A stretch of DNA of 64,000 nt. Source: Tubulanus polymorphus (lineage: Eukaryota > Animalia > Nemertea). The notes under the pieces were generated by a model. That model did not search any database and was not told where the DNA came from. It worked only from the letters and a program-made list of their open reading frames with translations. Positions 9,424 to 41,173 of this stretch are shown piece by piece. Positions within the stretch are counted from its first letter, which is position 1. Every line of letters begins with the position of its first letter. The stretch spans positions 10,726,001-10,790,000 of the forward strand of contig NC_134028.1 of assembly GCF_964204645.1 (NCBI RefSeq), given 5' to 3'. A program made the translations under genes and the position numbers.

Positions 9424-9570
<147 letters not shown>

Positions 9571-17900: not shown

Positions 17901-17901
17901 T

Positions 17902-18259
17902 TATTTTACATATTTTCGTATTCAAAATCTATATCATGGTGCCCTTTTTCATTCTTACCTTTATATATGAAATAGAAATCACCAAAACATAATTCTTCTA
18001 AATCTTCACTTGATAATCTATGAAATCTATCTGGTAAATATGTTCTGAATTTATATTTATTTCCTTTCAATCCTTCATATGCTAAGTGAATAACTAATTT
18101 ATCTCCATATTTGTTAGTAACTGTATCAATATTAGTAATTAAATATTTCTTATGAATTGTTAGTTCATTTAACTTCTTAAATTTACAATCTACTGATTCG
18201 ACATTTGCAGTATCTTAAATTCTATTTAAGAATTAACTGTGTATTTGTTTACTCTCCAT
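17902..18259 (-). pseudogene. Small Polinton protein, possibly OB-fold ssDNA-binding
   Basis: FKKLNEL..KKYLITNI..V.NKYG..VI.L..FRTYLPDRF..FIYKG pattern; two stops near the 5' end; absent from the right copy. Confidence 0.4.
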
Positions 18260-18507
18260 TTTGATAACATATTTTTTATTAAAATTGATTTTAGAAGTTA
18301 TTCATATTCATATATATGAATATTATAAGAGTAATAGGAATTAGTTGTTCTAGATTAAAGGTTGAGAGGGCAAGTGAGTAAAAAATTGAAAAATTCATAA
18401 AAAATGAAAATAAATTCTCGCACACTCGAATTTATTGTTCATTTTTTATGAATTTTTTTATTTTCTGGCCAAGTTAGTGTTGGCTACGTATGTTTTTACA
18501 GGGAATG

Positions 18508-18592
18508 AGTAATTGGAAAAGTACGCTTTCAGATCAGAGTACGAGACACCACTCATCACCACAAGTAATTTTTTTTCCTAATAAATGGGAGA
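18508..18592 (+). repeat. Polinton left TIR (contains TAAATG start of the pPolB gene)
   Basis: Reverse complement of 40125-40217; begins AGT. Confidence 0.9.
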
Positions 18593-21500: not shown

Positions 21501-23410
21501 TATATTGAATTTAATCAATCGAAATGGTTAGAAAAATATATAGATTTCAATACTCAACAGAGAACCATATCAAAAACAGATTTTGAAAAAGATTTCTTCA
21601 AATTAATGAATAATAGTTTTTATGGTAAAACATGTGAAAATATTAGAAATAGAAATGATATTGAATTAGTAAATAATTCTGAACGATTAAGACATTTACA
21701 ATCAAGTCCTAGACATTTAGGAAATAAAAGATTTGAAGATTATTTAACAGCAGTTAAATTAAAAAGAACGTCAATGAAATTTAATAAACCTATATTCATT
21801 GGTTCAACTGTTTTAGAAGTATCAAAATTATTAATGTATGATTTTTATTATAATGTTTTACAACCACTTTTTGGGGAAAAACATATAGAAATCTTATATT
21901 TTGATTCTGTTACAGCTGACACCCCAATATTATTAAAATGTAATGATAAAATATTGATAAGAAGAATTTCAGAAATAATTCCAAAACAAAATGAATGTTA
22001 TATTTCATATGGTGAAAAAGAATTAATACAAATAAATGGTTTAATGGATGTTTGGACAAGAAATGGATGGAAAAAATTAAAGAATATTATTAGACATAAA
22101 ACAAATAAGAAAATCTATAGAGTTAGAACTAAATTAAAGTTTGTAGATGTTACAGAAGATCATAGTTTAATTAAACGAAATGGCGATGAAATAAAACCAA
22201 CTGATATAAAAATTGGAGATGAATTATTACATAAAAGATTTTTCCAAAGAATGAATCATATGTCATTTGATGAAATTATTGATAATATTTATAATACAGA
22301 ACCCGAAACATTAGAAGAAAAAGGATATTTTATCATAGGATTTTTCATGGGTGATGGTTCAGCAGGTGTGTATAAATATGTTAATCGCACTCAATATCGT
22401 TGGTATTTATGCAATCAAGATTTGAAATTATTAGAAAGAATTAAGAAATTCTGTGAAGAAGTTTATTCACATAAAACATTTAGAATCGTGGATCATATGA
22501 AATCATCCGCGGTTTATAGAATATTTGTAAATAATCCTAAAGATTTTGCTACAAAATATAATGATGAATTCTATATTCATGCAATAGTTAAAAGTAATAC
22601 TTCAACTAAAAAAAAGATAGTTCCAGATTATGTATTAAATGCAAAAGATAATTTAAGAAAATGGTTCTTCATTGGATTTTATGCTGCAGATGGTTCAAAA
22701 AGTTTCAATACAATATCTTTTAAGCTCAAAAAGGAAAAGTTGCTATATCAGGGTTAAATATATTATGTAGTTCATTAGGCTTCAATATGAATATTGGATT
22801 GATTAAATCTAAACCAAATTGCTTTAATTTAAGCCACACAGAAAAAGATTTAACTGAAGAAGTTAAAGATTTATTTGAAATATATAACCCAGCAGATTAT
22901 GTTTATGATTTATCAACTGAAGATGGTACATTTAACTGTGGATTTCCATTAATTGCGTTCAATACTGACAGTTACATACTAAAAATCAAGACAAATGACA
23001 TAACAAAAGACTTAAAAACATGAAAACATCATTTTGATTTTAGCAATTATCCCAAAGATCATGAACTATTTAGCAATGATAATAAAAAGATTCCTGGTAA
23101 ATTTAAAGATGAATTAGGGGGTGATGAAATGATTGAATTTGTTGGGATAAGAAGTAAAATGTATAGTTACAGAACAAAAGATCATGAAGCTAAAAAGTTA
23201 AAAGGAATAACAAAACATGTGGTTGATAAACATATAGAATTTCAAGATTATATAAAGTGTTTATATAACTCAATTGTAATGAAACACAAAATGAATTGTT
23301 TAAGATCAGAAGATTACGAGATGTACATTAATGAAGTTGAAAAAAAGTTTGAATCCATTTGATGATAAAAGGCATATTTTAGATGATGGTATAAAAACAT
23401 TACCGAAATC
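18585..23410 (+). pseudogene. Protein-primed family B DNA polymerase (pPolB) with N-terminal zinc fingers, vOTU-like protease region, exonuclease with HNH/EndoVII insert and an intein; disrupted
   Basis: Motifs: NKCFLWSI..HYVW (OTU-like), IYGDFES (Exo I), C..C..VRDHDH..YRGAAH..CN (EndoVII), FHNLSGYD, YIDANNLYG (A), KLMNNSFYGKT (B), YFD|TDS (C), PFDDKR. Stops, frameshifts and an internal deletion near 21428 split it into 7+ ORFs. Confidence 0.93.
21906..22963 (+). mobile_element. Intein with LAGLIDADG homing endonuclease inserted in pPolB motif C
   Basis: YFD|SVTADTPILL (block A), VDVTEDHSL (block B TxxH), FIIGFFMGDGS and FFIGFYAADGS (two LAGLIDADG motifs), YVYDLSTEDGTF (block F), IAFN|TDS (block G, +1 Thr). 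One frameshift at ~22721. Confidence 0.93.
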
Positions 23411-23653
23411 ACTATTGGCTTCTTCATTTTCATTTAATTGTTCTTGTATAATTTGTTTAGGTTCTTCCATTTCATTTTTCTCATTTAAATAAAGTTCTAT
23501 CTTGTACCACATTTCATCTCGCTCTCTTTGTTTCTTTTTGTTTGTTAATTCGTCAAATGGAATTATACTATCGATGTTTAAATAATTTACAATCTTATTT
23601 AAAAAGAATTCATAATTAATTGAATCTGTTATTCTATTTTCCAAATGATACAT
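23306..23653 (-). CDS. Polinton hypothetical protein
   Basis: 115-aa ORF, start overlaps stop of upstream ORF; convergent with pPolB. Confidence 0.45.
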   Translation of the reverse strand: MYHLENRITDSINYEFFLNKIVNYLNIDSIIPFDELTNKKKQRERDEMWYKIELYLNEKNEMEEPKQIIQEQLNENEEANSDFGNVFIPSSKICLLSSNGFKLFFNFINVHLVIF

Positions 23654-24294
23654 TAATATTTGTTTGAATGTTTTTTTATATTTTCCATATATTCTTCTGT
23701 TAATTTAGGTTTTTCATAATAATCATTAAATAATAAATATAAATACATTTTCTTTTGTTTTGTGTTAAATGTTGATGGAATAATTGTTTTTATAATATCT
23801 TTTTTAGTTATTTCACCATTTTTATTTTCTATCATTTTCATTTTTTCAAGCCATTGCATATATTCTGGTGTATGAACTTCTATAGAAAATATTTTAAAAA
23901 TTTCATCTAGATAATTTAATTTTGGTTCTATGAGAAAATCTCTAGTTTTTTCATCACCCCATAAATTCTTTTGCCATCCACATTCATTACAAAATAACAC
24001 AGTACCTTCTTGTCTTAAGGTCGCATAATTACATTGTGGGCATTTTTGTTTATAATTTATTGGTAATAGATCTTCATTAAGCTCCTGGTATTTTCTTATG
24101 TTTTCTTTATGTTTTACTGTTCTATTATGTAGATTTGAATTACATGTTGTAATAATCAATTTACAATATTTACAATAATATGTTTTTCTTGTTAATTCAT
24201 TATATTGTTTTTCTAACTTTTCAACTGTTTCTTTATTATCTGGTAACGTTTTCTCATATTTTATTTTTTCTAATTTATTTATTTCTAGTTTCAA
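23653..24294 (-). CDS. Polinton zinc-finger/zinc-ribbon protein
   Basis: YYCKYC..H..T.KH and CPQC..CNECG motifs. Confidence 0.6.
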   Translation of the reverse strand: MKLEINKLEKIKYEKTLPDNKETVEKLEKQYNELTRKTYYCKYCKLIITTCNSNLHNRTVKHKENIRKYQELNEDLLPINYKQKCPQCNYATLRQEGTVLFCNECGWQKNLWGDEKTRDFLIEPKLNYLDEIFKIFSIEVHTPEYMQWLEKMKMIENKNGEITKKDIIKTIIPSTFNTKQKKMYLYLLFNDYYEKPKLTEEYMENIKKHSNKY

Positions 24295-24697
24295 ATTTAT
24301 TAGAAATTTTATCTATATGTATTTTACGAAATTGATGATTCTCCCAAGCTTCTATATTTTCAGGACTAAATTTCATTCGACAAGGCTCGCAGAAATGATC
24401 TTTCATATTATCCTTGTCATAGAATAAGAAAAGTCTTTTCCAAATAATTTCAGGTTCAACTTCAACAGAATTAATATTACTTTCGTTACAATCAACATTA
24501 GCCGTTGCGCCATTAATTTTACACTTCTCTGAATGTTTTTTAACATAATTTCTTGAGAATAATTTATTACATTTTGGGCAGTTTATTTTAGGGGGTTTAT
24601 AATTTTCATCATGTTTTTTCATATGTCGAGCCATATTACTTGTTCTTAGAAGTTCACCACAAATTTCGCATGGTATCTTCTCATCTTCTCATCCATT
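24275..24697 (-). pseudogene. Polinton C2H2 zinc-finger protein (frameshifted 5' end)
   Basis: CEIC..ARHMKKH, CPKC..KKHSEKC, CEPC..H motifs; TAAATG start near 24695. Confidence 0.55.
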
Positions 24698-24764
24698 TAG
24701 TAAGGAAAAATTTTATTAAAATTAATTTTTAGTGATGAGCGGTAATTTTTTTATGTTATAAATA

Positions 24765-25545
24765 ATGGTAGAATTAAAAGAATACAGAATATTTGTTGAT
24801 TCTAGAAAACTTACAAATTATAAATCACATAATTTACTAGTTCAATTAGATAGAGAATTTAAGAATTGTGTTGATTTAAAATTAGTGAATATAAGTTTAT
24901 GTAACTCTTTTTATAATATATCAGATAAAACTGATGAACATAGAAGCTTTTTTATTTTTGATAAAATTAGTAGTAAATGGTTTCAACTTATGCTTACACC
25001 AGGATTATATAATTTAGAAACATTAGCGCAAGAAATTAATAGTAAAGCTCGGATTGGATTAGGTAGTGATTCTAAATTTAATATTAAATTCATAAAAAGT
25101 GAGATCTCTAATGAAATTAAAGTAAAGTTTGATGATGAAAATATTAATCCTGCTTTATTTACAAGAAAACATGCTTACGTGGTATAAAAAAACTTTTGCT
25201 AAACTGTTAGGAATTCTTCCAAATAAACTTAATGTCGGAAACATATACGGTATATCAAATTTAATACCTTTTACACATTTTTATATTTATTGCAATTTAA
25301 TTGATCCTACAAAAACATTTGAAGCAACTAAAGATATAACTTGTAATTCTAGTATATTGAATATTCTACCATTAAAAAATGTTAAACAATTTGGAACGCA
25401 AATAGATTATAAATTAGCTGAATGTGATTAAACCTTGTATACCACAATTTAATAATTTTAAATTAGAAATAAGAAATCATAATGGATATTTAATTGATTT
25501 AAATAACTTTCCTGTGATATATGAATTAGTTATAAGATGTATAGA
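24765..25545 (+). pseudogene. Minor capsid (penton)-like protein, frameshifted
   Basis: IFVDSR..NSFYNI..LTPGLYN..FYIYCNLID..ILNILP..LEIRNHNG.LIDLNNFP pattern resembles Polinton/PLV pentons; three ORF pieces. Confidence 0.65.
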
Positions 25546-25586
25546 GTATTTGTATAGAGTATGTATAGAATTTTTTCATTATATAA

Positions 25587-25943
25587 ATGAATATAACTGT
25601 TGGACCGAGTATATGTTTTGGATTTGATTTTAAACGTGAGAAAGAAATGAAATTTAACATTAATGATGTAATTACAGATATTAAAAATATTGCATTTTCT
25701 AATGAAACAACATTTGAGTATGAAACAACAATAGATAAAGAAACTTTAAATGTAGAAAAGATTACTAATTTAATTAGAGAATCTTTAAGATTTTATGAAT
25801 TAGAAGAAGATTTTATCATCGATGATATTAAAATAATAATAATTGAAATATATACAAATGAAACTAGTAATGAAATAAATGTTGATTTAATCATAAATAA
25901 GTTAAATAAATATTTTGATGATAGTAATTTTTTTGATAAATAA
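25587..25943 (+). CDS. Polinton hypothetical acidic protein
   Basis: 118-aa ORF with TAAATG start; homolog at ~16780-17128 (-). Confidence 0.6.
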   Translation: MNITVGPSICFGFDFKREKEMKFNINDVITDIKNIAFSNETTFEYETTIDKETLNVEKITNLIRESLRFYELEEDFIIDDIKIIIIEIYTNETSNEINVDLIINKLNKYFDDSNFFDK

Positions 25944-27062
25944 ATGAGTGATAATAAGTGGATAATAACTGGATTATATAATGGAGCATTACTATCAGTT
26001 GGAACTGTTGGTTATTCAATGGTATTAAAAAAAGTATTTAAAATGGAAGTGTTAATGTTGATAGATTTGATATAAATGATATTTTAAAATTAACATTAGC
26101 AGTTACTTTATCTAATTTAACTATTGATTATTTAGAAAAACAAAAATATATTCCTCCCATATAAATGCGTAATTATTTTACTAAATAAATGGCTTCTGCA
26201 ATTATAACTATTATAGGATCGGCAATTGTTAACGCTTTAGCATTTACTGGTGGTGGTTATTTATTTAAGCATATTGATAAAAATAGTTCATTAGGAGAAC
26301 AAAGAAGACATAACTTAGCATTAGAAAAATACAATAAAGCAGCAGAAGAATATAGAGAAAAGAGGCAAAACTATATGGATTATATTAACAAGGAATTATA
26401 TGATCAGTAGATTTCACATATAGATTTTCAATCAGTTGATGATGCAATGAGTTTATATAACGCGGTAACCAATAAAGAAAAATTACATCTACATAAACCT
26501 ACAATATCAGATTATTATACCCCAAGTAAAGAACAACAGAAATATGAAATAATTTGGATTTTAGGCGGAACAGTTATTGTTATATTTGTTGCTTATAAAT
26601 TCACTAATTAGTAATTTTTTTGCTAAATAAATGGAAGATTAAGTTGATAATATTGATATTATTCCTCATGATATAAATAAAACTAAATTAAAAATATATT
26701 TAGAAAAACAAATGTTAGAATTTGAAAATGATTTAAAAGTTAAAAAGAAAAAATATTTAAAATCTAAAATTATATATTATTTGATTATAAGTGGTTTGGT
26801 TCGGTTACAATTAGTTCTGTAATAACATTTCTAGCAATATTTTCGCCATTAACACCTTTAGCTATATCAATTGGCGTATTAGAATTAAGTTCAAGTGTTT
26901 TAACTGGTATAAGTTCAAAATTAAATATAAAAAGTAATAAAGAAAAAATTAAAACTAATATAAAAGAAATTAATAAATTAAAGAATACACTAGATTATAT
27001 ACTAAGTTTAAATGGCAGTTGAAGAACAAGATAAATTATTAAAAGAATTAATAAATTATTAA
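25944..27062 (+). pseudogene. Cluster of three small predicted membrane proteins (MSDNKW.., MASAIIT.., MED.VDN..)
   Basis: Each starts at TAAATG and has hydrophobic stretches; stops/frameshifts present; homologs in the left copy. Confidence 0.6.
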
Positions 27063-27078
27063 TTTTTTAATTATATAA

Positions 27079-28467
27079 ATGGTAGATGGTTTTCCAAAAG
27101 CTTTCCAATATAATAAATCAATTAAATATAATATTCCAGCAATAGATTTTAATAAAGATATTACATATAGAAATGAAGTTTTAGATTCATTAACTAATTT
27201 AGAAATTTATGTTACTGAAACTAATAATTTTAATGCAAAGATGGAAAATATATTTCATGTATATTTAATTAATTTTAAAAAATTGAAAGATGAAAAACAA
27301 TGGTTATTAAAATCTAATATGAAATATTGGCAGAACCAATTAAATTTTGCTGTTTATTGCGCAACAACAGGTTGTGGAATTAGTTGGAATGATCATTTGA
27401 ATAATTCTAAATATAAATTAATTCAAAGTTTATTTAGATTTCATACATACTTTCAAATCAGAATAATATTAAATGAATTAGAGTGCGCTTTACCAGGATC
27501 TAGATATTTTAAAGAATTAGATAATAATATTAATTTATTGAAGTTTTATAAAATTTGCAATGAATTTAATATAGATATAAATAATTCTGATTTTAGAACA
27601 AAAATTGGAACAATAAGATCACTTCCTTGCCTTAAAAAAATTGTAGAATATTGTGCACTTCCCATACCATCTAATAGCTTTTATAATATCTATAATAATA
27701 AATTAGGTTATGGTAAAATAGAAACAAAGGATTTAGAAACATTAAATTTCAATAAATTACCGAAATTTTATGATCAATCAAAACAAGAAAACAATAATGG
27801 TTGGGTTAATTTCATTTTAGAAAATAATGAAGGTTTTACAAAATCAGGTATACAAAGAATAAATCAATCTATTAGAACTTATTTGATATGTATTCTAGGA
27901 TCACAGGTTGAAACAAGATCCCCAATAATTGGAAATTTAAATACATCATTTGATACACAGAAACAATTCAAAGTATTATTTGAAGATTCAATTCATAATG
28001 ATAAAAATAGATCGATTCCAGAAAACATTGTAAGATATCAAAATTATTTAGATAAATCACATATTAGATTAAATTATTGTATAGGTCCTAATCTATTAAT
28101 TATTTCTAATGATTTAGTTTTAAAGATGGGAAACATAATTGGTTATAATAATCTAATTAAAACTGCAACAATAAATAATTCATTTGGATTAAATGATATA
28201 AATAAAAAGATTATTACTGCTCCAAAATTAATGGAAGGTGAAAAAAATAAAAAACATATTCAATCAACAGAAACTAAAACTAAGAACATTAAATTAAATT
28301 ATGATTCTAAAATGAAAGATTATAATACATCAGAAAATATTAAAACTGATAATATTCAACATGATATAATTAAAACTGATAATGATAATAAATCCCATGA
28401 AAATACTAAATTAGCTTTAACTTGTATAGGAATTGTTATAAGAGGAATATTATATTTTAAATTTTAA
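27079..28467 (+). CDS. Polinton conserved hypothetical protein (462 aa, C-terminal hydrophobic anchor)
   Basis: Intact ORF; internally deleted homolog at ~7004-8010 (-). Confidence 0.75.
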   Translation: MVDGFPKAFQYNKSIKYNIPAIDFNKDITYRNEVLDSLTNLEIYVTETNNFNAKMENIFHVYLINFKKLKDEKQWLLKSNMKYWQNQLNFAVYCATTGCGISWNDHLNNSKYKLIQSLFRFHTYFQIRIILNELECALPGSRYFKELDNNINLLKFYKICNEFNIDINNSDFRTKIGTIRSLPCLKKIVEYCALPIPSNSFYNIYNNKLGYGKIETKDLETLNFNKLPKFYDQSKQENNNGWVNFILENNEGFTKSGIQRINQSIRTYLICILGSQVETRSPIIGNLNTSFDTQKQFKVLFEDSIHNDKNRSIPENIVRYQNYLDKSHIRLNYCIGPNLLIISNDLVLKMGNIIGYNNLIKTATINNSFGLNDINKKIITAPKLMEGEKNKKHIQSTETKTKNIKLNYDSKMKDYNTSENIKTDNIQHDIIKTDNDNKSHENTKLALTCIGIVIRGILYFKF

Positions 28468-30138
28468 TTTTTTTATTATATAAATGGATGTAGAAGGTGG
28501 AGAAGATATTGGAATGGATACTTTTGATGAACCCGGCATAACTGAAGAACAACCGCCTGATTTTAGTGAAACAAGTTTTAATGACGGTAATGAGCCAGAA
28601 TATAATAATAATTTAAATATGCCTGATTATATTAAAAATGCAGAATCACAATTAAATCCTGAAAATTTAGACCCAGATTTAGTAAAACAAGATTTAGATA
28701 ATTTAAACAAAATACCTCAATTAGAACGTATAATTGAAAAGTCTAAACTTAACATAAATGATGAAGACGTTGGACTTTTAGCAGATCAATTAAAATCTTT
28801 AGATAATGGTAAATGGTATTATCATTTGAAAGGTATTTATTATATTGATATCACTTATAAAAATAATAAAAATAAAATATTAACAAAATCAACTTTGAGT
28901 GATTTAGATCCAGATAGAATTAAAAGAATTAGTAATAGTAATGTAATAACTGATGTTATAAAACAAGAATTAACTGGTAATGATATAGACGTATTTAAAC
29001 AAAGAATTAATGAATTATTTGAAATAATCAAAAAGAAATCAGAAACAGAAACAACTTCTGAACAGAATATAACTTTCAAAACTAGTAAACTTAAATCAAA
29101 TAAAGTTCCAATTGAAAAACTTTTACCGAATGGATTAATTGATGCAACAGATCAACAATTAGAAGATTTTAATATATTTTCTGATGAAGCAATTAGAGAA
29201 ATTATTAGTATAAGAAATGAAGCTGATAAAATTACACATAATAAAAGTATAAGAGATTTTAAAATTAGATTTTTAGAAAAGAATTAACTGATAAAAATAA
29301 AGAAATAGAACAATTAAAGTCTGATTTAGATCATCAAGTAATTGATGAAACAGAATATAGGCAAAAAGAATTACGATTAGAAAAAGAAATTAATGATTTA
29401 AAAGATAATTTAGAAGTACAGAAAGAAGAAATTGAATTATTAAAATCATATGATTATAATATTAATAGATTAAAAGTTATTTTTAAAGATTTGTTGATTA
29501 AACCAAATTCTGAAATATCATTAAAAGATAGAATAAAGTTATTATTTGAATTAGAAGGAATAACAATTCTTTTAATTCTAACAGCTGTAACTATGTTATT
29601 TACAACAATTGGTTTAGCAATATCAAATTCTTAGAAATCTACTCCTACTCCCAATAAACCGGATAAACCCCCCGAGTGATAATAATTCTATACAAGATAA
29701 AGTAAAAGATGGTTTAAAGAAGAGGAGGGAATCCCACAATGATAATAAAAAGTCCGAAAATGAAACTTCGAGATAGTAGTTTATTTCAACGTTTCTACTA
29801 TATCCTAATAGTCATCTTCAGGAATAATGAGATACTACAGAAATTATGAGATATATATATACAATCCAGAGACAAAGAGACTAATTCAAGTAATCAGAGA
29901 TGATACAAACTAAAGGAAAATTAACGTAGAAACAGTTACACGCTAAAATAGATTAAAGGGAAGCAAACTAAGGGGTGATTATAAACAACAATAGTGAGTA
30001 TAAATATAAATGAAACTTAAAGTCAGTAGTAAAAAGAAAGACAAACTAAGGGGCACTTAAATTAAAACAAAGGTGAATACAAGTTAAGTCAGAGACGAAA
30101 TTGATGAGAGAACAAATAACAAATAATCAAAGGGGAAA

Positions 30139-31563
30139 TCAAGTGTTGAATTTAACCAGTTTACAGAGGAATTTTGATATAAGTTTATTATGGGGTGAAA
30201 AACCATTGTTAAGGTTTACAACGTTGTTCGAATTTTCAATAATTAATGCAGATTCCAAAATATGTCTTCTAGTTTTATCGCTGCAAGGGTAAACTAATTC
30301 AGCATTAGCAAAATCAAAATTGTGTGAAGTCTGAAAAACATGACTAGCAACTCCGCTTTCAGGTTTAAAGTTTTTTACATCTAATTTATGCTCTTTTATG
30401 CGTTGATTAAGATTCCGACCTGTTTCTCCTATATATACTTTGTCGCAAACTTTACAAGGTATTTTATAAATTCCACAGTTTAGGGATTCGGTTTTCGGTT
30501 TGTTGTTAATCAATATGTTACTAAGTTTATTATTGTATTTAAAGATAAGTTGTTTATTTAGTGACCGAAGAGAAACTTTAGAATTCTCGAGGAAAGGTAC
30601 ATACGGTACAATGATAGGCTGTTTATCGGTAGCCAACGTAGGAGTTCTAAGGTTGTTATTTCTAAAATGCGTAGTACGAGCTTTAAGTAGAGCTTTTTTC
30701 AATAGGAAATCGGGGTAGGCAAGTTTTTTGAGAGATTGGTTAATATGGTGAATCTCATCGGGTAGAAATGAGGGGTCGCAAATTCTCAAAGCGCGAAGAA
30801 ATAATCCTTGAGCTAAACCGAGTTTAATATCCGGAGAAGTAAAAGAGAAGTAATGGAGGTAGGATTCAGCGTTGGTAGGTTTCCTATAAACCGCGAATTT
30901 CAAAAAGGATCCACAGTTAAAAATCAAAACATCCAGAAAAGGTATTTTACTATTAGATTCCCATTCATACGTAAAAGCCAGAGACGGGTAAAGGGAGTTT
31001 AAATATATAAGAAAGTTATCAACATTGAAGTCAAAGGGAACCAAAGCCAGAACATCGTCAACATATCTGAGCCAGATTTTAGGGTGAATATCAGTGTAAA
31101 GAGGCAATATTTCAGATTCAACATGTTCTAGGAATAAATTAGCTAGAATAGGACTAAGAGGATTTCCCATAGCGATACCGAATGTCTGTTCGTAAAAACA
31201 ATTGTTGAATTCAAAAAAGGAGTCCGTCGTACAAATAGAGATAAGGTCGATGATACAATCCGTAGGAATGCCGAAGTTAATGTTAAGTGATGGTAATCTG
31301 CGTTTTAAGAAATCAAGAGTAGGTCCAAGAGGAACATTGGTAAAAAGGGAAGTAACATCAAATGATATGAATTTGTCGTTGCCAGGGATAATATTCTTAA
31401 TACGTTCAAGTAAGTGTTGATTATGGCGAAGGTGCGACGGAGAGAACGAACCGAGCACCGGAGATAACTGTTTCGCGAGAAATTTAGATAACCGGTATGT
31501 AGGAGAATTACAATTGGAGACTATAGGGCGCAGTGGAACATTATCTTTATGAATTTTAGGCAA
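30139..31563 (-). CDS. Inverted partial duplicate of the Penelope RT/GIY-YIG ORF
   Basis: Near-identical to the C-terminal 474 aa of 31935-33908 (about 4 aa differences). Confidence 0.9.
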   Translation of the reverse strand: MPKIHKDNVPLRPIVSNCNSPTYRLSKFLAKQLSPVLGSFSPSHLRHNQHLLERIKNIIPGNDKFISFDVTSLFTNVPLGPTLDFLKRRLPSLNINFGIPTDCIIDLISICTTDSFFEFNNCFYEQTFGIAMGNPLSPILANLFLEHVESEILPLYTDIHPKIWLRYVDDVLALVPFDFNVDNFLIYLNSLYPSLAFTYEWESNSKIPFLDVLIFNCGSFLKFAVYRKPTNAESYLHYFSFTSPDIKLGLAQGLFLRALRICDPSFLPDEIHHINQSLKKLAYPDFLLKKALLKARTTHFRNNNLRTPTLATDKQPIIVPYVPFLENSKVSLRSLNKQLIFKYNNKLSNILINNKPKTESLNCGIYKIPCKVCDKVYIGETGRNLNQRIKEHKLDVKNFKPESGVASHVFQTSHNFDFANAELVYPCSDKTRRHILESALIIENSNNVVNLNNGFSPHNKLISKFLCKLVKFNT

Positions 31564-31934
31564 TCCATAGATATTATGATATACGTGGTTGAAGACAAAT
31601 TTACTATGTTTTCGGTGTTGCTAAATCTAGTCCAAGGGCTGGAATCAATGAGTTTATTCAGTTGGTTGGTAAGATCCACGGACTTTCTGTGCTGATGATA
31701 TTTTCCAGAGCCTTGAACAATAGTGGAGAGCGATTTCCAGAGGAATAGGTCCGGTACGTGTGACTTCAAATAATTTTGAGATTGACGGAATTTGTAGAAC
31801 TGATAGTTACAGTCTTCCTTAGCACGATCTATAGCGAATTTGAGTTGCTTGTTAGCTTCGGGTGGAAACGCAGAGCTGGATTCGATTTAAGTTTCTTATA
31901 AACACCAGGATTATCCAAGAGAGATTGAATTTTA

Positions 31935-33908
31935 ATGTATTGCATTTTAATGTATTGCATTTTAATTTACATAGTAAATTTGTCTTCAACCACGTTATCT
32001 TCTACTCAGTGTCAACTTCTCGGCTACGGTTTGAATTTTTCTCTTCCTCATCAAGATAAACATGTTTTAGACTTTGTCACCCAATTGGAATATCGCAAAT
32101 CATCTCCGAACAGTTTGGACTATAACTTTATATTCATGAATCTACAGGCTATATGCGATCAACTCAACAAGAACCTTTTTGAATATCTACCTCGTCGATT
32201 TCGGCTCGCCCTCCAAGAACTACGGAAGTTAAAGACTATTAAAATATCTAAGGCTGACAAAGGTGGCAAGATTGTGATTTTAGATCTGGATAATTATAAT
32301 GTTAAAATGCAATCTCTCTTGGATAATCCTGGTGTTTATAAGAAACTTAAATCGAATCCTCTTCCTCGTATGCAAGCTAATTTCAACAGAAGTCTTTCGG
32401 ATATTATTAAACGTTTCCCCTCCGCTAAAGAAACTCTGAATAAGTTCCATTCACGTCTTCCCTCTTTACCATATATCTATGGATTGCCTAAAATTCATAA
32501 AGATAATGTTCCACTGCGCCCTATAGTCTCCAATTGTAATTCTCCTACATACCGGTTATCTAAATTTCTCGCGAAACAGTTATCTCCGGTGCTCGGTTCG
32601 TTCTCTCCGTCGCACCTTCGCCATAATCAACACTTACTTGAACGTATTAAGAATATTATCCCTGGCAACGACAAATTTATATCATTTGATGTTACTTCCC
32701 TTTTTACCATTGTTCCTCTTGGACCTACTCTTGATTTCTTAAAACGCAGATTACCATCACTTAACATTAACTTCGGCATTCCTACGGATTGTATCATCGA
32801 CCTTATCTCTATTTGTACGACGGACTCCTTTTTTGAATTCAACAATTATTTTTACGAACAGACATTCGGTATCGCTATGGGAAATCCTCTTAGTCCTATT
32901 CTAGCTAATTTATTCCTAGAACATGTTGAATCTGGAATATTGCCTCTTTACACTGATATTCACCCTAAAATCTGGCTCAGATATGTTGACGATGTTCTGG
33001 CTTTGGTTCCCTTCGACTTCAATGTTGATAACTTTCTTATATATTTAAACTCCCTTTACCCGTCTCTGGCTTTTACGTATGAATGGGAATCTAATAGTAA
33101 AATACCTTTTCTGGATGTTTTGATTTTTAACTGTGGATCCTTTTTGAAATTCGCGGTTTATAGGAAACCTACCAACGCTGAATCCTACCTCCATTACTTC
33201 TCTTTTACTTCTCCGGATATTAAACTCGGTTTAGCTCAAGGATTATTTCTTCGCGCTTTGAGAATTTGCGACCCCTCATTTCTACCCGATGAAATTCACC
33301 ATATTAACCAATCTCTCAAAAAACTTGCCTACCCCGATTTCCTATTGAAAAAAGCTCTACTTAAAGCTCGTACTACGCATTTTAGAAATAACAACCTTAG
33401 AACTCCTACGTTGGCTACCGATAAACAGCCTATCATTGTACCGTATGTACCTTTCCTCGAGAATTCTAAAGTTTCTCTTCGGTCACTAAATAAACAACTT
33501 ATCTTTAAATACAATAATAAACTTAGTAACATATTGATTAACAACAAACCGAAAACCGAATCCCTAAACTGTGGAATTTATAAAATACCTTGTAAAGTTT
33601 GCGACAAAGTATATATAGGAGAAACAGGTCGGAATCTTAATCAACGCATAAAAGAGCATAAATTAGATGTAAAAAACTTTAAACCTGAAAGCGGAGTTGC
33701 TAGTCATGTTTTTCAGACTTCACACAATTTTGATTTTGCTAATGCTGAATTAGTTTACCCTTGCAGCGATAAAACTAGAAGACATATTTTGGAATCTGCA
33801 TTAATTATTGAAAATTCGAACAACGTTGTAAACCTTAACAATGGTTTTTCACCCCATAATAAACTTATATCAAAATTCCTCTGTAAACTGGTTAAACTCA
33901 ACACTTGA
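31935..33908 (+). CDS. Penelope RT + GIY-YIG endonuclease (5'-truncated)
   Basis: KADKG, YGLPKIHK..PLRPIVS, SFDVTSLFT, GIAMGNPLSP, RYVDD, GIYKIPC..C..YIGETGR. Confidence 0.95.
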   Translation: MYCILMYCILIYIVNLSSTTLSSTQCQLLGYGLNFSLPHQDKHVLDFVTQLEYRKSSPNSLDYNFIFMNLQAICDQLNKNLFEYLPRRFRLALQELRKLKTIKISKADKGGKIVILDLDNYNVKMQSLLDNPGVYKKLKSNPLPRMQANFNRSLSDIIKRFPSAKETLNKFHSRLPSLPYIYGLPKIHKDNVPLRPIVSNCNSPTYRLSKFLAKQLSPVLGSFSPSHLRHNQHLLERIKNIIPGNDKFISFDVTSLFTIVPLGPTLDFLKRRLPSLNINFGIPTDCIIDLISICTTDSFFEFNNYFYEQTFGIAMGNPLSPILANLFLEHVESGILPLYTDIHPKIWLRYVDDVLALVPFDFNVDNFLIYLNSLYPSLAFTYEWESNSKIPFLDVLIFNCGSFLKFAVYRKPTNAESYLHYFSFTSPDIKLGLAQGLFLRALRICDPSFLPDEIHHINQSLKKLAYPDFLLKKALLKARTTHFRNNNLRTPTLATDKQPIIVPYVPFLENSKVSLRSLNKQLIFKYNNKLSNILINNKPKTESLNCGIYKIPCKVCDKVYIGETGRNLNQRIKEHKLDVKNFKPESGVASHVFQTSHNFDFANAELVYPCSDKTRRHILESALIIENSNNVVNLNNGFSPHNKLISKFLCKLVKLNT

Positions 33909-34217
33909 TTTCCCCTTTGATTATTTGTTATTTGTTCTCTCATCAATTTCGTCTCTGACTTAACTTGTATTCACCTTTGTTTTAATTTAAGTGCCCCTTA
34001 GTTTGTCTTTCTTTTTACTACTGACTTTAAGTTTCATTTATATTTATACTCACTATTGTTGTTTATAATCACCCCTTAGTTTGCTTCCCTTTAATCTATT
34101 TTAGCGTGTAACTGTTTCTACGTTAATTTTCCTTTAGTTTGTATCATCTCTGATTACTTGAATTAGTCTCTTTGTCTCTGGATTGTATATATATCTCATA
34201 ATTTCTGTAGTATCTCA

Positions 34218-34265
34218 TTATTCCTGAAGATGACTATTAGGATATAGTCGAAACGTTGAAATAAA
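34218..34265 (+). ncRNA. Minimal hammerhead ribozyme motif in Penelope pLTR
   Basis: CTGAAGA (34224-34230), stem II GACTAT/ATAGTC, GAAAC with palindromic AACGTT stem III; inverted copy at ~29780-29827. Confidence 0.75.
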
Positions 34266-34606
34266 CTACTATCTCGAAGTTTCATTTTCGGACTTTTTAT
34301 TATCATTGTGGGATTCCCTCCTCATCGCGTCAACACGGATATTGTGTTCTACCTATCGTGATGGTTTAAAGAAATTAGCAAAATATTTATGGGAACTATC
34401 TAAAAGATCTGCTGCAGCTTTACTAGGAATTATTGCATCAATTGTTGGTTTTCTGCAGGTAATATTCTTAACTTTGCTGCTGAACATATTATTTTATTTT
34501 TAATTACAGTTGTAAGTGCTATTATTTTTGGGTTAGTGAATATGATATCAAAAAGATATCAAGAAAAAATGATAAAAAATAAATAATTAATTTTTTTGTT
34601 AAATAA

Positions 34607-35856
34607 ATGAGTGGGAGTTATATAAGTCCTTCTAAGATTTCTAGAATATCTAATGCTATTAAAGCAGAAAGATCACATCATATAATTACTCATAATCCTT
34701 CAAATATTAATCCCGATGAAACTTTATATGTTAGAATTCCTAGATTAACACAAAATACTTTTTATGTTCCAAATAGTATTTATTTATCAGCCGATATAAA
34801 AGTAACTGGTCATGATAATAATTATGTTGTCGATAATGTTGGGAGATATTTGATTAAAAAATTAACTACAAAGATTTGTCCAGAAACAGTTTTCTCATTA
34901 GATGATTATAATTTATTAATGCATTATAAAGATTTATGGTTAACTAAAGAAAATAGAAATAATATGATATTTCAAGGCATTCAATCGGAAAACCATAATA
35001 AATTAAGATCAGGAGGTAATGACGCAATAGTAACTCGTGCCGCAGATAATTTGATTAAAAAGATTTATGGAAGCAAATATAAAATTCCATTAGACTTTGA
35101 ATTGATAAATAATAATGCACCTTTATATAAATATGTAATTCAAGAAGATGTTATATTTGAGATGTTTGCTCCTGTAAATGAAATTGTATTATCTAGCGTT
35201 GTTAAAGATATGGGTTATAAATTATCGAATATATGTTTAGAATATAACACAGTAACTAATGAAAATATTGCTAACACAATTCAAACTCAATACAATCAAG
35301 GATTTTCATTATTATATGATTATATTGATAAATTTAAAACTGTAACTATTAATGCAAATGATGAGATAATTAATGAGAATATTAACTTCCCAAGAAGATC
35401 TATTAAAAGTATATTAATATTTCTTACCATTGCAACATATTCTAATGGCGCAATAAAGGTAGATAATTATTATAATCCTAAAATAACAAAAGTAGAAATA
35501 ACTATAGCAAAGGAATAGCAAATAAAATATTTTGTCAAGGAATGAGAATGATAGATCAATGGCCAGAAATTAGAAAACATTTTATGAATGAAAAAGTGAA
35601 ATCATCTGAAAATTGTAATATTAATCAAATTGATTATTATTATACCGGTAATAAATATGCATTATGGTTAGATTTTAGAACAACAGAGGATAATTCATTA
35701 CATGGTTCTGGGAAAAAACTACAGAACACTAAAGATGGAATACAATTATTCATGGCAAAGAAAAGAGGAGACAAAAATTTCAAAATGCACATTTATATTA
35801 TATCTGACGCACAATTAAATATTGTAAATTCACAATTAGATAGTATTCAATATTAG
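34607..35856 (+). pseudogene. Major capsid protein (double jelly-roll, inferred), premature stop near 35518
   Basis: ~410-aa beta-rich product located between the structural cluster and integrase; homolog at 4951-6199 (-). Confidence 0.7.
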
Positions 35857-36062
35857 AAATATAAAGTTAAAATTAAGGATATATAAATAGGCGGTATTAA
35901 ACTCCTAGTACTAAAGAACAATATTTAAGAAATTTATATTACAACCCTGAGAGTTCGGTTGCTTATTCTTCTGCCAAAAATATGTGGCGTCAAGTATAAC
36001 AAGATAAATTAGATAAGATAATCCCACAAAATTTAGTTAAATATAAAGATATAAATGAATTT

Positions 36063-37013
36063 ATGTTAGAACAACCAACATACACAACACATAAAAAAAT
36101 TGTTAGAAAATATAAAACTCGTAAAACTATGGTACGTTATGTAGATCAACAGTGGCGAGGAGATTTAATTGATATGAAAAGTGTTAAGAAAGATAATGAT
36201 GATTATTGGTGGATATTGAATATAATTGATATTTTCAGTCGTTATGTATGGAGCTTCCCACTTTACCGAAAAGATGCTGTACAAACATCAAATGTTTTAA
36301 GAAAATTTCTTTCGGATGATAAACTAAAACCAGAAAAAATACAATTTGATGATGGAAAAGAATTTGATAATTCACTTGTTCATGAACTCTTAGACAATCA
36401 TAATATTAAATATTTTTCAACAAAATCGGATAAAAAAGCGGCAGTTGTTGAACGATTTAATAAAACATTAAGAACAAGAATGTGGAAATATTTTACAGCA
36501 AATAATACTTTTAAATGGATTGATGTTTTACCAAAATTGATAGAAGGATATAATAATTCTTATCATTCTTCTATTGGAATGAAACCTATTGATGCTAGAA
36601 AACCTGAAAATGCTGAAATTGTTTGGAATAATTTATATGGAGCATTTCTTGTAGATGATTTTGGTGAACCTAAATTTAAAGTTGGTCAAAATGTTAGAAT
36701 TTCTAAGTATAAAAAGATATTTGATAAAGGATACGATCGAAATTTTACTAGGGAAATATATAAAATAAAAAAGGTAATAACAACAAAACCATATGTCTAT
36801 AAATTAGAAGATTTAGATGGTGAAGAAGTTGATGGCTACTTTTACGAAGAAGAATTAAGTTTAACTACAGAAAATCTAGAACAAGAATATAAAATTGAAA
36901 AAGTATTAAAAACAAAAACTATTAAAAGAAAAAAATATTCTTTAGTAAAATGGGTTGGGTGGCCAGATGAATTCAATGAATGGATATTATCAAGTAAAAT
37001 TAAAAGTATATAA
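36063..37013 (+). CDS. Retroviral-like (RVE) integrase with C-terminal chromodomain (true 5' end ~35887 mutated)
   Basis: WRGDLIDM, IDIFSRY, QFDDGKEF, VERFNKTL (DDE); YKIEKVL..LVKWVGWPDEFNEWI (chromo). Confidence 0.93.
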   Translation: MLEQPTYTTHKKIVRKYKTRKTMVRYVDQQWRGDLIDMKSVKKDNDDYWWILNIIDIFSRYVWSFPLYRKDAVQTSNVLRKFLSDDKLKPEKIQFDDGKEFDNSLVHELLDNHNIKYFSTKSDKKAAVVERFNKTLRTRMWKYFTANNTFKWIDVLPKLIEGYNNSYHSSIGMKPIDARKPENAEIVWNNLYGAFLVDDFGEPKFKVGQNVRISKYKKIFDKGYDRNFTREIYKIKKVITTKPYVYKLEDLDGEEVDGYFYEEELSLTTENLEQEYKIEKVLKTKTIKRKKYSLVKWVGWPDEFNEWILSSKIKSI

Positions 37014-37621
37014 TGAATAAGGAATTATTTATATTTGAGCCTCATAATATGTTAATTTCTGGTGTAACAAATTGTGAAAAAACTTATTTTATATTAAATT
37101 TATTAGAAACTGTTTATAAAAACTATTTTGATAATATAGTATTATTTTGTCCAACATATGAATTTAATCAAACTTATGACAGAAATATTACTAGAAATAA
37201 TAAATTTATTATATTAGATCCTAAAACAGTAAAAGAAAATTTAGATAATTGTATTAAAATAGCAATTGATATTTCTAAAGAATCAATTACATTATTCATT
37301 ATAGATGATTGTGCTAATCTACATGATTCAAAAGTTAGAGAAAGTGAGTTATGCTATTTAGCTTTCTCTGGGAGACATTTTGGGATAACAACATGGGTTT
37401 TAAATCAAAAATATAATTCAATTGTTAAAGACTTTAGAGAAAACATTAGATTTCTAGTTTTATTCTACAATAAAGACAGAAAATCGATGAAAAATGCACT
37501 TGAGGAAAATGATATTATTCCACATGATTTACAAAATGAATGTATGGATAAATTGAAAAATAATAAAAGATCAAAATTACTATTTAGATTACAACACCCA
37601 TTTAAATATGAATTTATTTAA
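37013..37621 (+). CDS. A32/FtsK-like DNA packaging ATPase
   Basis: ISGVTNCEKT (variant Walker A), LFIIDD (Walker B), SGRH.GIT.WVL.Q. Confidence 0.88.
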   Translation: MNKELFIFEPHNMLISGVTNCEKTYFILNLLETVYKNYFDNIVLFCPTYEFNQTYDRNITRNNKFIILDPKTVKENLDNCIKIAIDISKESITLFIIDDCANLHDSKVRESELCYLAFSGRHFGITTWVLNQKYNSIVKDFRENIRFLVLFYNKDRKSMKNALEENDIIPHDLQNECMDKLKNNKRSKLLFRLQHPFKYEFI

Positions 37622-37900
37622 ATTCAACTGACTTGTTAATCTAGGTGAATTCTAGTAACATTCTAGTTGAATTCTAGTTATTAGTAGTTGAAACAAAAAT
37701 CAAATAAAATTCAACCATATTTTAACTAGCTTGTTAATCTAGTATATTTTTAGTTACATTCTAGCTGAATTCTAGTTATTAGTAGTTGAAACAAAAATCA
37801 ACTAGATTTAACAAGAAATAAATAAAAACAACAATATTTCAACTAGCTTGTTAATCTAGTTGAATTCTAGTTACATTCTAGTTGAATTCTAGTTGCAACA
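37622..37900. repeat. Intergenic array of CTAGTT/GAATTC-rich 11-12-bp repeats
   Basis: Repeated TTCTAGTTGAA/TTCTAGTTACA units; also present at ~300-490 in the left copy. Confidence 0.7.
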
Positions 37901-37926
37901 ACACAACTAATTTGTTTGTTATATAA

Positions 37927-38517
37927 ATGGGAGGTGAAAAGAAAATAAAATCTAAAAATGGTGATGTTCCAATTGAAAAAACTTTAGATGATTTAGGAAT
38001 AACAGAAACAAAATTAATTCCAGATGATGGTGCTTTAATTAATGTTACAACAAATAATAATTATGAATATTATCTTTATTGTAAACATCAATTAGAAATA
38101 TTAATAGCATCTGGAAAATGTAAAAATTTTATCGGTAAAAATTTAACTTATAATGAATTAGATACAATGAAATCAGATGAAATTATTCGATTATTTAAGA
38201 TTGATGAAACCGCGAGAACAGCTAGAATTAATGACGCGATATCAGAAAATGTAGTAAAAGGTTATAGTAAATTATGTAATTATATGCTGCCAATTCAAGA
38301 TGAAAATAGATTATATGCTGATTTAAAAAATGATTATTTAGTTATGATCGAATTAAATAAATGGATTGGATATTTATCATTTCAATTAGGTGGATTTATG
38401 ACATTATTATCAACTGGAGTTATAACATTTTTAAATATTGAAAGTAAAAATATTTCTATAATAAATGAACAAGGTGGAAGAAGTGAAGAAAAAACCGAGA
38501 TCACAGAAACAAATTGA
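37927..38517 (+). CDS. Polinton hypothetical protein (196 aa)
   Basis: TAAATG start; homolog at 136-283 (-) truncated by Penelope. Confidence 0.65.
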   Translation: MGGEKKIKSKNGDVPIEKTLDDLGITETKLIPDDGALINVTTNNNYEYYLYCKHQLEILIASGKCKNFIGKNLTYNELDTMKSDEIIRLFKIDETARTARINDAISENVVKGYSKLCNYMLPIQDENRLYADLKNDYLVMIELNKWIGYLSFQLGGFMTLLSTGVITFLNIESKNISIINEQGGRSEEKTEITETN

Positions 38518-39239
38518 ATGGTCTCGGCAATTAGGAATTAAATCACAAGAATATAAAAAAGCTGTAAAAGAAAAATAAGTAATAAAAATGTTAATAAAAA
38601 TGGTGAAAATATTGTTATTTCTACTCCTTCTAATAATAGAATATTTGATAAATGTCTATATTTTACAGTTGGATTTGTAATTGTATTCATTTTGATTGGG
38701 TGTAATTGGTATAAGAAATCTAATAAAATTCATGATATTTATAATTCTGAAACAACTGCTATCAAAAATGAAAATACTTCTGAAATTCCAAAATTGATAA
38801 TAAAAAAAATCGATTAATATTTTAGAAAAAAAGCAAAAAAATAATTGAATATCTCACTACTTTTGTCTATCTATGCGGAGCAATTAAATTGTCCAGATAA
38901 GTCATTTCGGATTCTAGATATTCATTGTTTTTATTAATTCATTTTGTTTTTTTAATTTGAAGTTTTTACTTGAATATTGTATTACAGTCGTTTCTTATTA
39001 TTAGTTTTTTCTTAAATTGAAAGATGGCAGCACTGGGCGTGATGCTAAATGTATATTTGAATTTGAATTTGTTAATCAATTAACATGGTAATTGATTACT
39101 AATTTGATTAAAAATTATATCATAATTAAGTTAAAAATCCATAATTCATTCATCAGTTTTCATTCCTATATTCTTTTCATTCGGAATAATTTATAATTTC
39201 AAATTTCATATATTTCTTTAGTAAACACCAACAACATTT

Positions 39240-39531
39240 ACCGCCGCCGGGCTTGGCTTGCAGGGGCATTTCGAAAATGCACCTTTGTCCACCCTCCGTG
39301 GTTCTCCTTCAGTTTCGACTTTCGATGCTCCTTTCGGGGATAAGGGGTTGATAGGAAATGCATTAGGCGCCTTTAATATAATGTGTTTCCTGTCAACCAT
39401 TGAAGGAGAATTGGTGAGGTGTGGGTCACAGGGGTGTAAGTAGAAATGCTTGGGGATAGGTATCTCGTGGCGCCTCTCACTAACGGGATGCTTATCCCCT
39501 AAAAACTCTGCGAGTCAAGTCGGGTGGTTTT
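39240..39531 (+). ncRNA. Putative structured non-coding RNA inside the Polinton
   Basis: Six long helices with ~17 G-U pairs and no A-C pairs, a UUCG hairpin, two GGCGCC loops and a terminal TTTT. Confidence 0.65.
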
Positions 39532-40124
39532 GCTAAAACTTACCTTGAAAACTGAATTCCTTTTAATCACTAGAGAGAGAATGTATCCTGTGTGTGTTGT
39601 ATGTATTGCGTGCTTATTATATAACTGCTAGCTATCCAATATAACAACAACGTTGAATTGCAACACCTTTTTGATCGATCAATATTCAAATGAAGCACTC
39701 TCTTATAATAACATGTAACAGATGTTTGACTGGTATGATTGTAGTTGTTCGTAAAACGACTAAGGTCATTTTGGATTCTAGATATTCATTATTTTTATTT
39801 TTTATTTAATCAACAATTTCTAAATCATGATGACCGTCTTCCTTTTTTCCATGATAGATTATTTTAAATCCTTCTAAATCTTTTAATTCCTCTGTACTCA
39901 ATGAAACCCATTTATCAGGTCAAATAATTTAAATTCTTGCGATGTACTAACATTGCAGTAGCTTAAATTAGAAGATACTTTCTCTCCATATTTAGTTTTT
40001 ATCTTTTCTAATTTCAATATTTTATGTTCAATTTCTTTTGTAACATCAACTAACTTTTTTATTTCAAATTTTTTTGTTTGCTGGTTTTATTCTGTTATTT
40101 ATTATTGCTAAGAATGCTTTTCTA

Positions 40125-40217
40125 TCTCCCATTTATAAGGAAAGAAAATTACTTGTGGTGATGAGTGGTGTCTCGTACTCTCGTACTCTGATCTGAAAGC
40201 CTACTTTTCCAATTACT
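40125..40217 (-). repeat. Polinton right TIR
   Basis: Matches left TIR apart from an 8-bp duplication (CTCGTACT) and a few substitutions; ends ACT. Confidence 0.9.
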
Positions 40218-41173
40218 GGAATGTATTGACGGGAATATTAATTACATCAATATTAGCCTTACTGCATATTCATGTAATCCTCATTTCTGAGCAACTTCAT
40301 AAGACAAATCCCAATGCCCTGACACTGCCACAAAGAAATAAGACACGGCTACCTTTACAATACCATGACTAATTGTTAATTTTCCTAAATTTTAGTCAAG
40401 GTGTTGAATATGCAGTTATCTTATTTGACTACTACTTAACACTAATTGCACCCATTTGGGGTGACTCGGGATGCGATATGGTGTCACTTGGGACGTCCCA
40501 AGTCACTCCAAATGGGTGCATACTTCTGTAAGGTTGGGATACACAAATTATGGTTAGAAACCCAGGTTCTAGATATTTTTCTATTTATGTAAGAGTTTAT
40601 ACAATTGCGAGATTGAGAATTTTTTTGCTTACTTCATTGAACTAGTGAAGTAGGAATTTTCCGATATTTCTTTTTTACATATTTCCTTCCATTTTTTGCC
40701 TTTACTATTTAACCACCATAAGATTGTCTGATAGTTATTTATCATGAAGTCATTATGTTTATGGTCTAGAACGTCCCGAAAGCATTATAAATCCGGAAAC
40801 ACGTGCTACATCTACTTGCCTTATTGTAATATGAAGTCAGCCATCTTTGTCTCGAGTCACCCAGTTGTCCCAAGTCAACCCATTTTATGGCATGCTTTGT
40901 AGAGCGATGCAACGCGGTACTGGAATGTCCCACCTACGATACGGGTACATATATTAGTGTTTAACGTTTATAACCTTTACGGAAAGAGGTCATGGTCAAG
41001 TGAAGCGCTTAGCAGCAGCTGCTTGAGTCTCCTCAAAGATCGCCTGTTTTCTACTTTCTGTGATCTTGTAATGTGCTAAGTGATAAGGATATCAGTGTTA
41101 CTTTTTTGGCAGACTCAAATGGATTACTGTTAGACTGATCTGTTACATTTTCTGGTTTCAATTTCTGGATATA

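Follow-up and report, generated by a model that had tools for sequence, protein, structure and literature searches.

A predicted Pol III-type small-RNA gene with twin palindromic loops in a Polinton lineage of Tubulanus polymorphus

The carrier Polinton and its copies

The window, i.e. the whole 64,000-nucleotide stretch of DNA analysed, contains a decayed Polinton/Maverick on the + strand (Table 1). A preliminary description had placed a structured RNA of about 290 nt in this element, and an integrase gene, an A32-type packaging ATPase gene and a terminal inverted repeat were indeed found around it. The RNA-like unit is located 1.6 kb from the ATPase gene and about 600 bases from the right terminal repeat. 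A frameshifted, intein-bearing ORF is taken to be DNA polymerase B; this label and that of the capsid gene are presumptive, being based on motifs and gene order rather than on a library match.

Table 1. Features of the carrier Polinton and of the predicted RNA gene (window coordinates).
Feature	Position	Strand	Basis
Decayed Polinton/Maverick, host of the RNA unit	18508..40217	+	Inverted repeat 18508-18595/40122-40217, gene content
Integrase with chromodomain, rve PF00665	36063-37013	+	Pfam match
A32-type packaging ATPase, PF04665	37013-37621	+	Pfam match
Conserved ORF	37927-38517	+	Related in 8 loci
Left 35-nt direct repeat bounding the cassette	38901..38935		33/35 identical to right repeat
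Predicted external promoter region	39190..39242	+	TATA-like words at 39192 and 39209; read joints
Predicted RNA gene, 289 nt, beginning with G and ending in the U4 terminator; paired bases 75%	39243..39531	+	Fold; copy homology starting at 39243
Terminal stem P1, closes 5' and 3' ends, one G-G	39243-39265 with 39506-39528	+	Fold
P2, 7 bp, stacked on P1	39266-39272/39443-39449	+	Fold
Long arm: P3 (11 bp), P4 (4+4 bp), P5 (15 bp, 39299-39313/39399-39413)	39278..39438	+	Fold
Two small, weakly defined junction hairpins in the long arm	39315-39325, 39328-39339	+	Fold
Hairpin P6, 20 bp, 13-nt loop 39366-39378 opening with GGCGCCU	39346..39398	+	Fold; copy variants
Hairpin P7, 17 bp, 14-nt loop 39469-39482 opening with GGCGCCU	39452..39499	+	Fold; copy variants
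TTTT, predicted Pol III terminator	39528..39531	+	Only T-run of at least 4 in the unit; diverged copies similar
Right 35-nt direct repeat bounding the cassette	39765..39799		33/35 identical to left repeat

A sister Polinton, 83-92% identical and interrupted by insertions, is arranged in inverted head-to-head orientation (135-17906 versus 24760-38073). It stops at the window edge, in a Penelope-like piece, before the position of the RNA is reached. Its integrase gene is interrupted by a tandem duplication of about 1.3 kb (1610-4292; 91% identical, GC-richer), and a 7.6-kb element (8210-15847) with terminal inverted repeats of about 750 nt (97% identical, composed of subrepeats of about 300 nt) is inserted elsewhere in the sister Polinton; the ORFs of this element are fragmented (10329-14676) and gave no convincing Pfam match. 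The RNA-bearing Polinton is itself interrupted at 29719-34326 by a Penelope-like retroelement, present as a 1856-nt, 99.4% identical inverted pair with an ORF (31935-33908) for 657 aa containing RVT_1 and GIY-YIG.

For the search for relatives, 430 candidate stretches from a metagenome scan were reduced to eight Polinton loci (L001-L008) with 53-67% identity to the ORF at 37927; protein-led scans of viral contigs and of prokaryote genome contigs yielded no related locus. In none of the eight was the RNA matched by blastn or nhmmer, none contained GGCGCC, and no comparable folded island was present; in L006 and L007, the windows of low energy fall partly on the beginning of the coding region used as query. 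Only L001 keeps the gene order of the window past the gene, and its matching interval has 18.6% GC and lacks the RNA. Gene order differs in L003-L007, and L002 and L008 break off before this point, so that the absence is firm for the syntenic interval of L001 and for the stretches examined. With none of the eight related loci carrying it, the RNA is therefore not a core part of the element, and on these sequences it would be an accessory specific to one lineage, with the cassette as the unit of gain or loss.

Further features of the Polinton genes were recorded. The polymerase intein (21477-22757) has a LAGLIDADG-like stretch, with PF14890 and PF14528 both below the curated cut-off, and the L004 polymerase aligns across the intein site without an intein (window 21908->22949 = L004 3534->3517). 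AT-rich 11-nt near-palindromic repeats lie between the ATPase gene and the ORF at 37927 in both copies (37623-37894 and 316-490), and in L003, L005 and L008, too, the ATPase is followed by AT-rich windows of low energy. The genes at 26164, 26606, 27054, 28459 and 34582 all start within one AT-rich motif, which ends in TAAATG and may be a promoter or start context specific to the element.

Copy analysis was based on raw genomic reads of a different sample with the same species label (X5), covering about 12% of that run. Read depth was 480-703 over the RNA; the Polinton genes on its left had 258-676, with a mean of 419. It fell to host level in bin 40199-40319, with about 6 beyond 40320. Relative to host depth, the RNA was thus covered 77-112x and the Polinton flanks 67x. 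Contigs of set X4 had depths of about 1700 and 919 versus 36-45, which points to about 40 copies for the main form and about 20 for a second one. The RNA shares the depth of the Polinton family and has no second copy in the window, so that the signature of a dispersed SINE or MITE, named beforehand as an alternative, was not seen; the window copy likewise has neither a poly(A) tail nor a short target-site duplication at the RNA ends. Low-copy dispersal is possible, since X4 includes diverged contigs of single-copy depth, some with other flanks.

The unit is contained in a cassette of about 864 bp bounded by two 35-nt direct repeats (Table 1). A cassette-less joint (38922 -> 39798) was present in eight X5 reads, one X1 contig and one X4 contig, i.e. 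in a minority of copies. The main subfamily has the cassette's own sequence on both sides of the unit, and in the diverged subfamily the first bases behind the terminator are still shared.

Fold and pair conservation

Folding of 39243-39531 gave a minimum free energy (MFE) of -154.7 kcal/mol for the + strand (z -11.6, equalled by 0 of 200 shuffles) versus -95 kcal/mol (z -5.0) for the - strand, in keeping with the closed multibranch + strand fold drawn in the preliminary description. The six helices listed there (P1, P2, P3, P5, P6 and P7) are all present, and its hand count of 17 G-U and no A-C pairs was reproduced: the 90 listed positions comprise 72 Watson-Crick pairs, 17 G-U, 0 A-C and one G-G. 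The whole MFE structure has 108 pairs, 20 of them G-U; because its sole 1x1 mismatch is G-G, it hides no A-C pairs. Under an even split, the excess of G-U over A-C has a P of about 8e-6. The majority of MFE pairs had a pair probability of at least 0.9. Two details required revision. P2 exists as a helix but has 7 bp, not 9, as its first two bases pair in P1 (about 0.9) rather than in P2 (0.04-0.10). For the proposed UUCG hairpin, the register 39329-39340 received a pair probability of only 0.11-0.14 versus 0.47 for a shifted register, and is thus a minor one.

The unit is a GC-rich island, as had been stated, with a GC content of 50%; the adjoining Polinton DNA has 24% and host DNA 37%. In a scan of 150-nt windows (275, 117 and 159 windows; Polinton DNA exclusive of the Penelope-like and 8.2-15.8 kb insertions), the lowest energy fell on the RNA island (-66.2); the minimum within 15851-29700 was -38.2, and an insertion in the sister copy reached -51.6. 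Elsewhere, a stretch of 15-23% GC at about 9300-9750 equalled the fold strength of the RNA island when 300-nt windows were used (-104.9 kcal/mol); it is probably an AT microsatellite palindrome. The longest ATG-led frames in the unit encode 24 aa (+) and 52 aa (-).

Known RNA classes were searched with Infernal against Rfam, as the preliminary description had proposed. The unit matched no family at E<=10, including SRP, 7SK, RNase P/MRP, ribozymes and group I introns, the three chance matches (E 2-6) lying outside it. At gathering score there was no hit over the window and six of the eight related loci, and thus no snRNA gene in the window. ARAGORN detected no tRNA. Several candidate motifs were rejected. 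No hammerhead core was found on the + strand; on the - strand, a strict match (39150-39156) lies outside the unit and is changed in most copies, and a relaxed match at 39312 was dismissed. The only telomerase template-like word is a 6-nt CCCTAA at 39497, beside a position varying in 39% of reads. A scan of viral contigs for the twin-loop pattern returned six loci, all tandem-repeat or ordinary sequence without hairpins, and the junction pattern occurred in 0 viral contigs and 0 genome contigs.

For scoring of pair conservation, variants were taken from reads and contigs of the same species label, the window copy being the only full-length sequence. Of the 55 variant rows (at least 4% of reads), 40 were classified: 10 were unpaired, 6 formed three two-sided changes, 17 were one-sided and kept the pair, and 7 broke it. 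All three two-sided changes are in P6 (39351/39393, 39355/39389 and 39358/39386; A-U>G-C, G-C>A-U and A-U>U-A), which has two further one-sided changes and no broken pair; P7 has five one-sided changes, all with pairing kept. Together, 13 of the 13 changes listed for the two hairpins keep pairing, a result matched in 5 of 200,000 random trials (null P 2.5e-5), and they affect 8 of the 40 stem positions of P6 and 5 of the 34 of P7. The diverged subfamily makes up about 30% of reads and retains every scored pair in P6 and P7. Many of the differences among copies are switches between G-U and Watson-Crick pairs. Phasing of the two-sided pairs relied solely on their having much the same read counts (188-210 of about 650). 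Since they come from about two or three subfamilies of one host species, the changes do not count as independent.

P1 has one-sided, pair-keeping changes at 39511-39513, 39517, 39518 and 39525. Seven of the 30 rows at paired positions (39410, 39416, 39419, 39449, 39521, 39526 and 39527) break pairing with the base opposite in the window copy. The partners of all seven are located in 39244-39302, a region to which reads of the diverged subfamily did not align (at 39346, depth rises abruptly, from about 440 to about 640); these rows are therefore unscorable, and covariation is limited to P6 and P7, with P1-P5 unproven. The covariation that was to be tested among Polinton copies was accordingly found as compensatory changes in P6 and P7, and the eight related loci contributed no homologue.

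The structure of 39243-39531 is real. That the unit acts as RNA is likely, and the copy variants argue that in P6 and P7 pairing is under selection while the letters of the stems change.

Gene ends and twin loops

Copy homology starts sharply at 39243, the first paired G, where 351 reads end loosely. At the other end, the sole T-run of at least 4 within the unit coincides with the 3' end of P1, exactly as reported before, and in diverged copies a T4 or T5 directly follows the terminal stem (loose read ends). Upstream of the start, the window copy has a TATA-like word at -34, in an AT-rich background where such words are common. A similar word at about -30 is present in most copies (the X5 main set and two X4 contigs), weak evidence in DNA of 20-25% GC, and the upstream letters differ between these three sources (main set, X4 contigs and window copy). 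The window copy is unlike most copies in the approximately 21 bases before the start, with a joint 39221->39243 in 45 reads. External-promoter (type 3) Pol III genes have a TATA box about 30 bases upstream of the start. The weak A- and B-box-like motifs suggested at about 39254 and 39312 did not stand up: scored against consensus boxes, the best matches were 6/8, 6/9 and 6/7 at scattered sites, and 39254 was outside the top four. Of the earlier Pol III assignment, Pol III-like gene ends are supported (a sharp G start and a U-run, with the TATA-like word as a candidate upstream element) and the internal promoter is not. We consider it rather likely that Pol III transcribes the unit from an upstream promoter of TATA type. 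A short GC-richer patch (39021-39050) with CTCF-like and octamer-like words was also observed; it precedes the start by about 200-220 bases, which is where a distal promoter element would be placed.

Both long hairpin loops open with GGCGCCT, whose core is self-complementary (39366 and 39469), as originally noticed; the hexamer occurs 4 times in the 64 kb. The after-the-fact chance that two loops share seven letters of which the first six are palindromic is about 1e-6. In the window copy, the palindrome of the P6 loop was 0.97-1.0 unpaired and that of P7 partly occluded (three positions 0.30-0.51 unpaired, including the first two G's at about 0.3). In both, it begins right after the stem, is followed by U and has no flanking purines. 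The 3' end of the P7 loop has the same four letters as that of P6 in 772 of 794 reads. None of the 14 GGCGCCT positions is changed among the listed rows, and 8 of the 46 unpaired positions vary (P about 0.04). With drifting stems and fixed loop starts, the loops therefore look like the working part and the stems like a scaffold.

The loop-loop duplex was calculated at -14.1 kcal/mol in all three combinations. Co-folding of two molecules gave a strand-swapped duplex 13 kcal/mol below two monomers, by a program that does not model kissing, and was set aside. If the unit is an RNA, it is fairly probable that the twin loops kiss, between molecules or within one. A fold-back could close internally, because P7, a 6-bp kiss and P6 add up to 43 bp and match the P2-P5 arm of 41 bp plus internal loops. 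By the rules for three-way junctions, on the other hand, the long A-rich P7-P1 linker would lay P7 beside P1; the loops would then be at opposite ends, which favours dimers, rings and chains. Use of the same palindrome twice points to like-with-like pairing.

Interpretation and comparison with known systems

On the evidence of the fold and its variants, the unit is a structurally selected, undescribed RNA-like unit in an animal Polinton, and it is predicted to belong with the small Pol III RNAs of viruses, as a variant whose design, with two palindromic hands, is unusual. Our preferred explanation, held tentatively, is a small-RNA gene of one Polinton lineage, read by Pol III into a 289-nt branched rod with kissing loops. 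Host RNA polymerase III would read the Polinton unit into a 289-nt RNA that folds into an end-closed, mostly double-stranded branched rod. Each of its two long hairpins would display the same self-complementary GGCGCC loop, and the loops would pair with each other, closing one molecule or linking several. During an active, virus-like phase, this abundant, end-protected mimic of dsRNA could tie up dsRNA-binding defence proteins of the host. Such a decoy function, with kissing adding valency or compaction, would be the likeliest role, of an accessory kind, though it is proposed purely by analogy with adenovirus VA RNA and its probability is fairly low.

Less probable still is a self-assembling building block, in which a rigid Pol III transcript with two palindromic sticky ends would form rings, chains or a gel-like network. 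As a scaffold or condensate, the network would concentrate the machinery of the element or trap host dsRNA sensors. If so, engineered kissing-loop assemblies would have an equivalent in nature, in the form of a free-standing viral RNA that serves to multimerise.

It is about equally improbable that the RNA is real but that its loops bind a host protein or RNA, as a two-handed sponge in which the palindrome is incidental. The shared seven 5' letters and, in most copies, four 3' letters of the loops would fit a common ligand, as would the lack of the flanking purines needed by the HIV dimerisation site (DIS). A protein site, however, need not be self-complementary, and a palindromic 6-mer has a chance of 0.014 at this composition. 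In a variant of the sponge, the loops would mimic a retroviral primer-binding site, which holds the same GGCGCC. The last four bases of a tRNA alone are unpaired, which counts against such mimicry. The longest word shared between the unit and the rest of the Polinton is 11 nt, so that no antisense target was found in the element. According to excerpts of PMC4264320, the primer-binding site of MMTV includes GGCGCC, but the same hexamer is itself implicated in dimerisation there.

Likewise doubtful is the capture of a small-RNA gene from the host, or the entry of a small mobile unit of Pol III type, with later copying along with the Polinton in its cassette. Structural selection would then have acted in the host or in the small unit and not for the Polinton. 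The direct repeats and empty-site copies, the absence of the RNA at the syntenic place in L001 (18.6% GC), the composition of the unit (50% GC versus 24% for the Polinton and 37% for host DNA) and the diverged X4 contigs of single-copy depth with other flanks all agree with a capture. Against it stand the lack of an Rfam match at E<=10 or at gathering score, the window copy's RNA ends without poly(A) tail or short target-site duplication, the read depth equal to that of the Polinton family, the main subfamily within its cassette flanks and the first post-terminator bases shared by the diverged subfamily.

That the structure acts as ssDNA is quite unlikely; in this reading, the strand that protein-primed replication displaces would use it as a signal for replication, packaging or integration. 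Polintons replicate by strand displacement, the unit is near the right terminal repeat, and folding with DNA parameters still favours the + strand (-62.0 vs -45.3 for the - strand). However, one pair in five would be G-T, and the many copy changes between G-U and Watson-Crick pairs suit RNA. The TATA-like word at about -30 and the T-run at the stem end need no explanation in DNA, and some copies and close relatives lack the structure.

There is little to recommend the idea that Pol III makes a precursor from whose long hairpins microRNAs or siRNAs are cut, as happens in BLV and foamy viruses. P5 and P6 form a 35-bp stack, P6 is a hairpin of 53 nt, and viral Pol III pre-miRNAs exist (PMC4378190, excerpts), but varying stems (8/40 in P6, 5/34 in P7) with fixed loop starts are the reverse of the expectation, and the element holds no target word longer than 11 nt. 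The structural ring RNA of a DNA-packaging motor suggested by comparison with phi29 pRNA is very improbable: the two loops could link molecules and the packaging ATPase gene is 1.6 kb away, but the loops are identical palindromes instead of complementary, non-palindromic ones as in pRNA, and relatives with an ATPase of the same family (up to 80% identity) have no such RNA in the stretches examined. Nothing that connects the unit with the packaging motor was found. The ATPase is of A32 type, a class that is not known to have an RNA cofactor.

Polintons are widespread endogenous DNA viruses related to adenoviruses. If the Pol III small-RNA reading is right, they carry VA-like accessory RNAs and met antiviral RNA sensing while active, and the transcript would be a simple marker of Polinton activity. 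A 289-nt RNA with two identical kissing hands would also be an easily made test object for RNA structural biology.

In the largely open-access literature covered, no dedicated regulatory or counter-defence RNA is described for Polintons. Polinton-like viruses have tRNAs, rRNAs, group I introns and matches to snRNAs, snoRNAs and miRNAs, some of them host-derived (PMC12220804, excerpts). These are known classes in elements of protists, whereas the present unit is neither a tRNA nor a match to any Rfam family.

Known viral Pol III RNAs are abundant and highly structured and end in U-runs, and some viruses have Pol III pre-miRNAs (PMC4378190, excerpts). VA RNA is about 160 nt long, with intragenic boxes A and B and a GGGU-ACCC central stem (PMC7589676, excerpts). 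The Polinton unit resembles VA RNA I/II and EBER1/2 as a stand-alone ncRNA unit in a dsDNA virus-like genome with a G start, a terminal stem, four 3' U's and long dsRNA-like stems (PMC7589676, PMC4378190). It differs from VA RNA in length (289 nt), in the lack of an Rfam VA match (E<=10), in having a TATA-like upstream word instead of a convincing box A/B, and in the lack of a paired GGGU-ACCC: one ACCC (39291) and four GGGT are present, and the ACCC is used in P4, its pairing with the nearest in-register GGGT (39423) being 0.0. Unlike VA RNAs and EBERs, it has two identical palindromic loops and has been found only in Polinton subfamilies of one host. Membership of the VA RNA family was therefore not upheld by length, boxes, central stem or Rfam, the terminal stem and U4 being shared.

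Six-nucleotide GC-rich palindromic loops drive kissing in the HIV-1 DIS (PMC7357161, excerpts), where purines flanking the palindrome are required, and in the 3' UTR of oskar RNA (PMC11567897). Both have in common with the Polinton unit such a palindrome in the apical loop of a long stem, but they are single sites in a genome or mRNA, whereas the unit has two per free-standing small RNA. In contrast to the DIS, its palindrome is placed at the 5' edge of loops of 13-14 nt and lacks flanking purines.

Natural RNA oligomers are rarely reported (PMC12990946). One of them, phi29 pRNA, has two complementary, non-palindromic loops and is essential to the packaging motor (PMC7357161, excerpts). Like pRNA and the multimers of bicoid RNA, the predicted Polinton RNA has two loop hands per molecule and could build rings or chains; theirs are complementary, non-palindromic and joined head-to-tail, whereas both hands of the Polinton RNA are the same palindrome.
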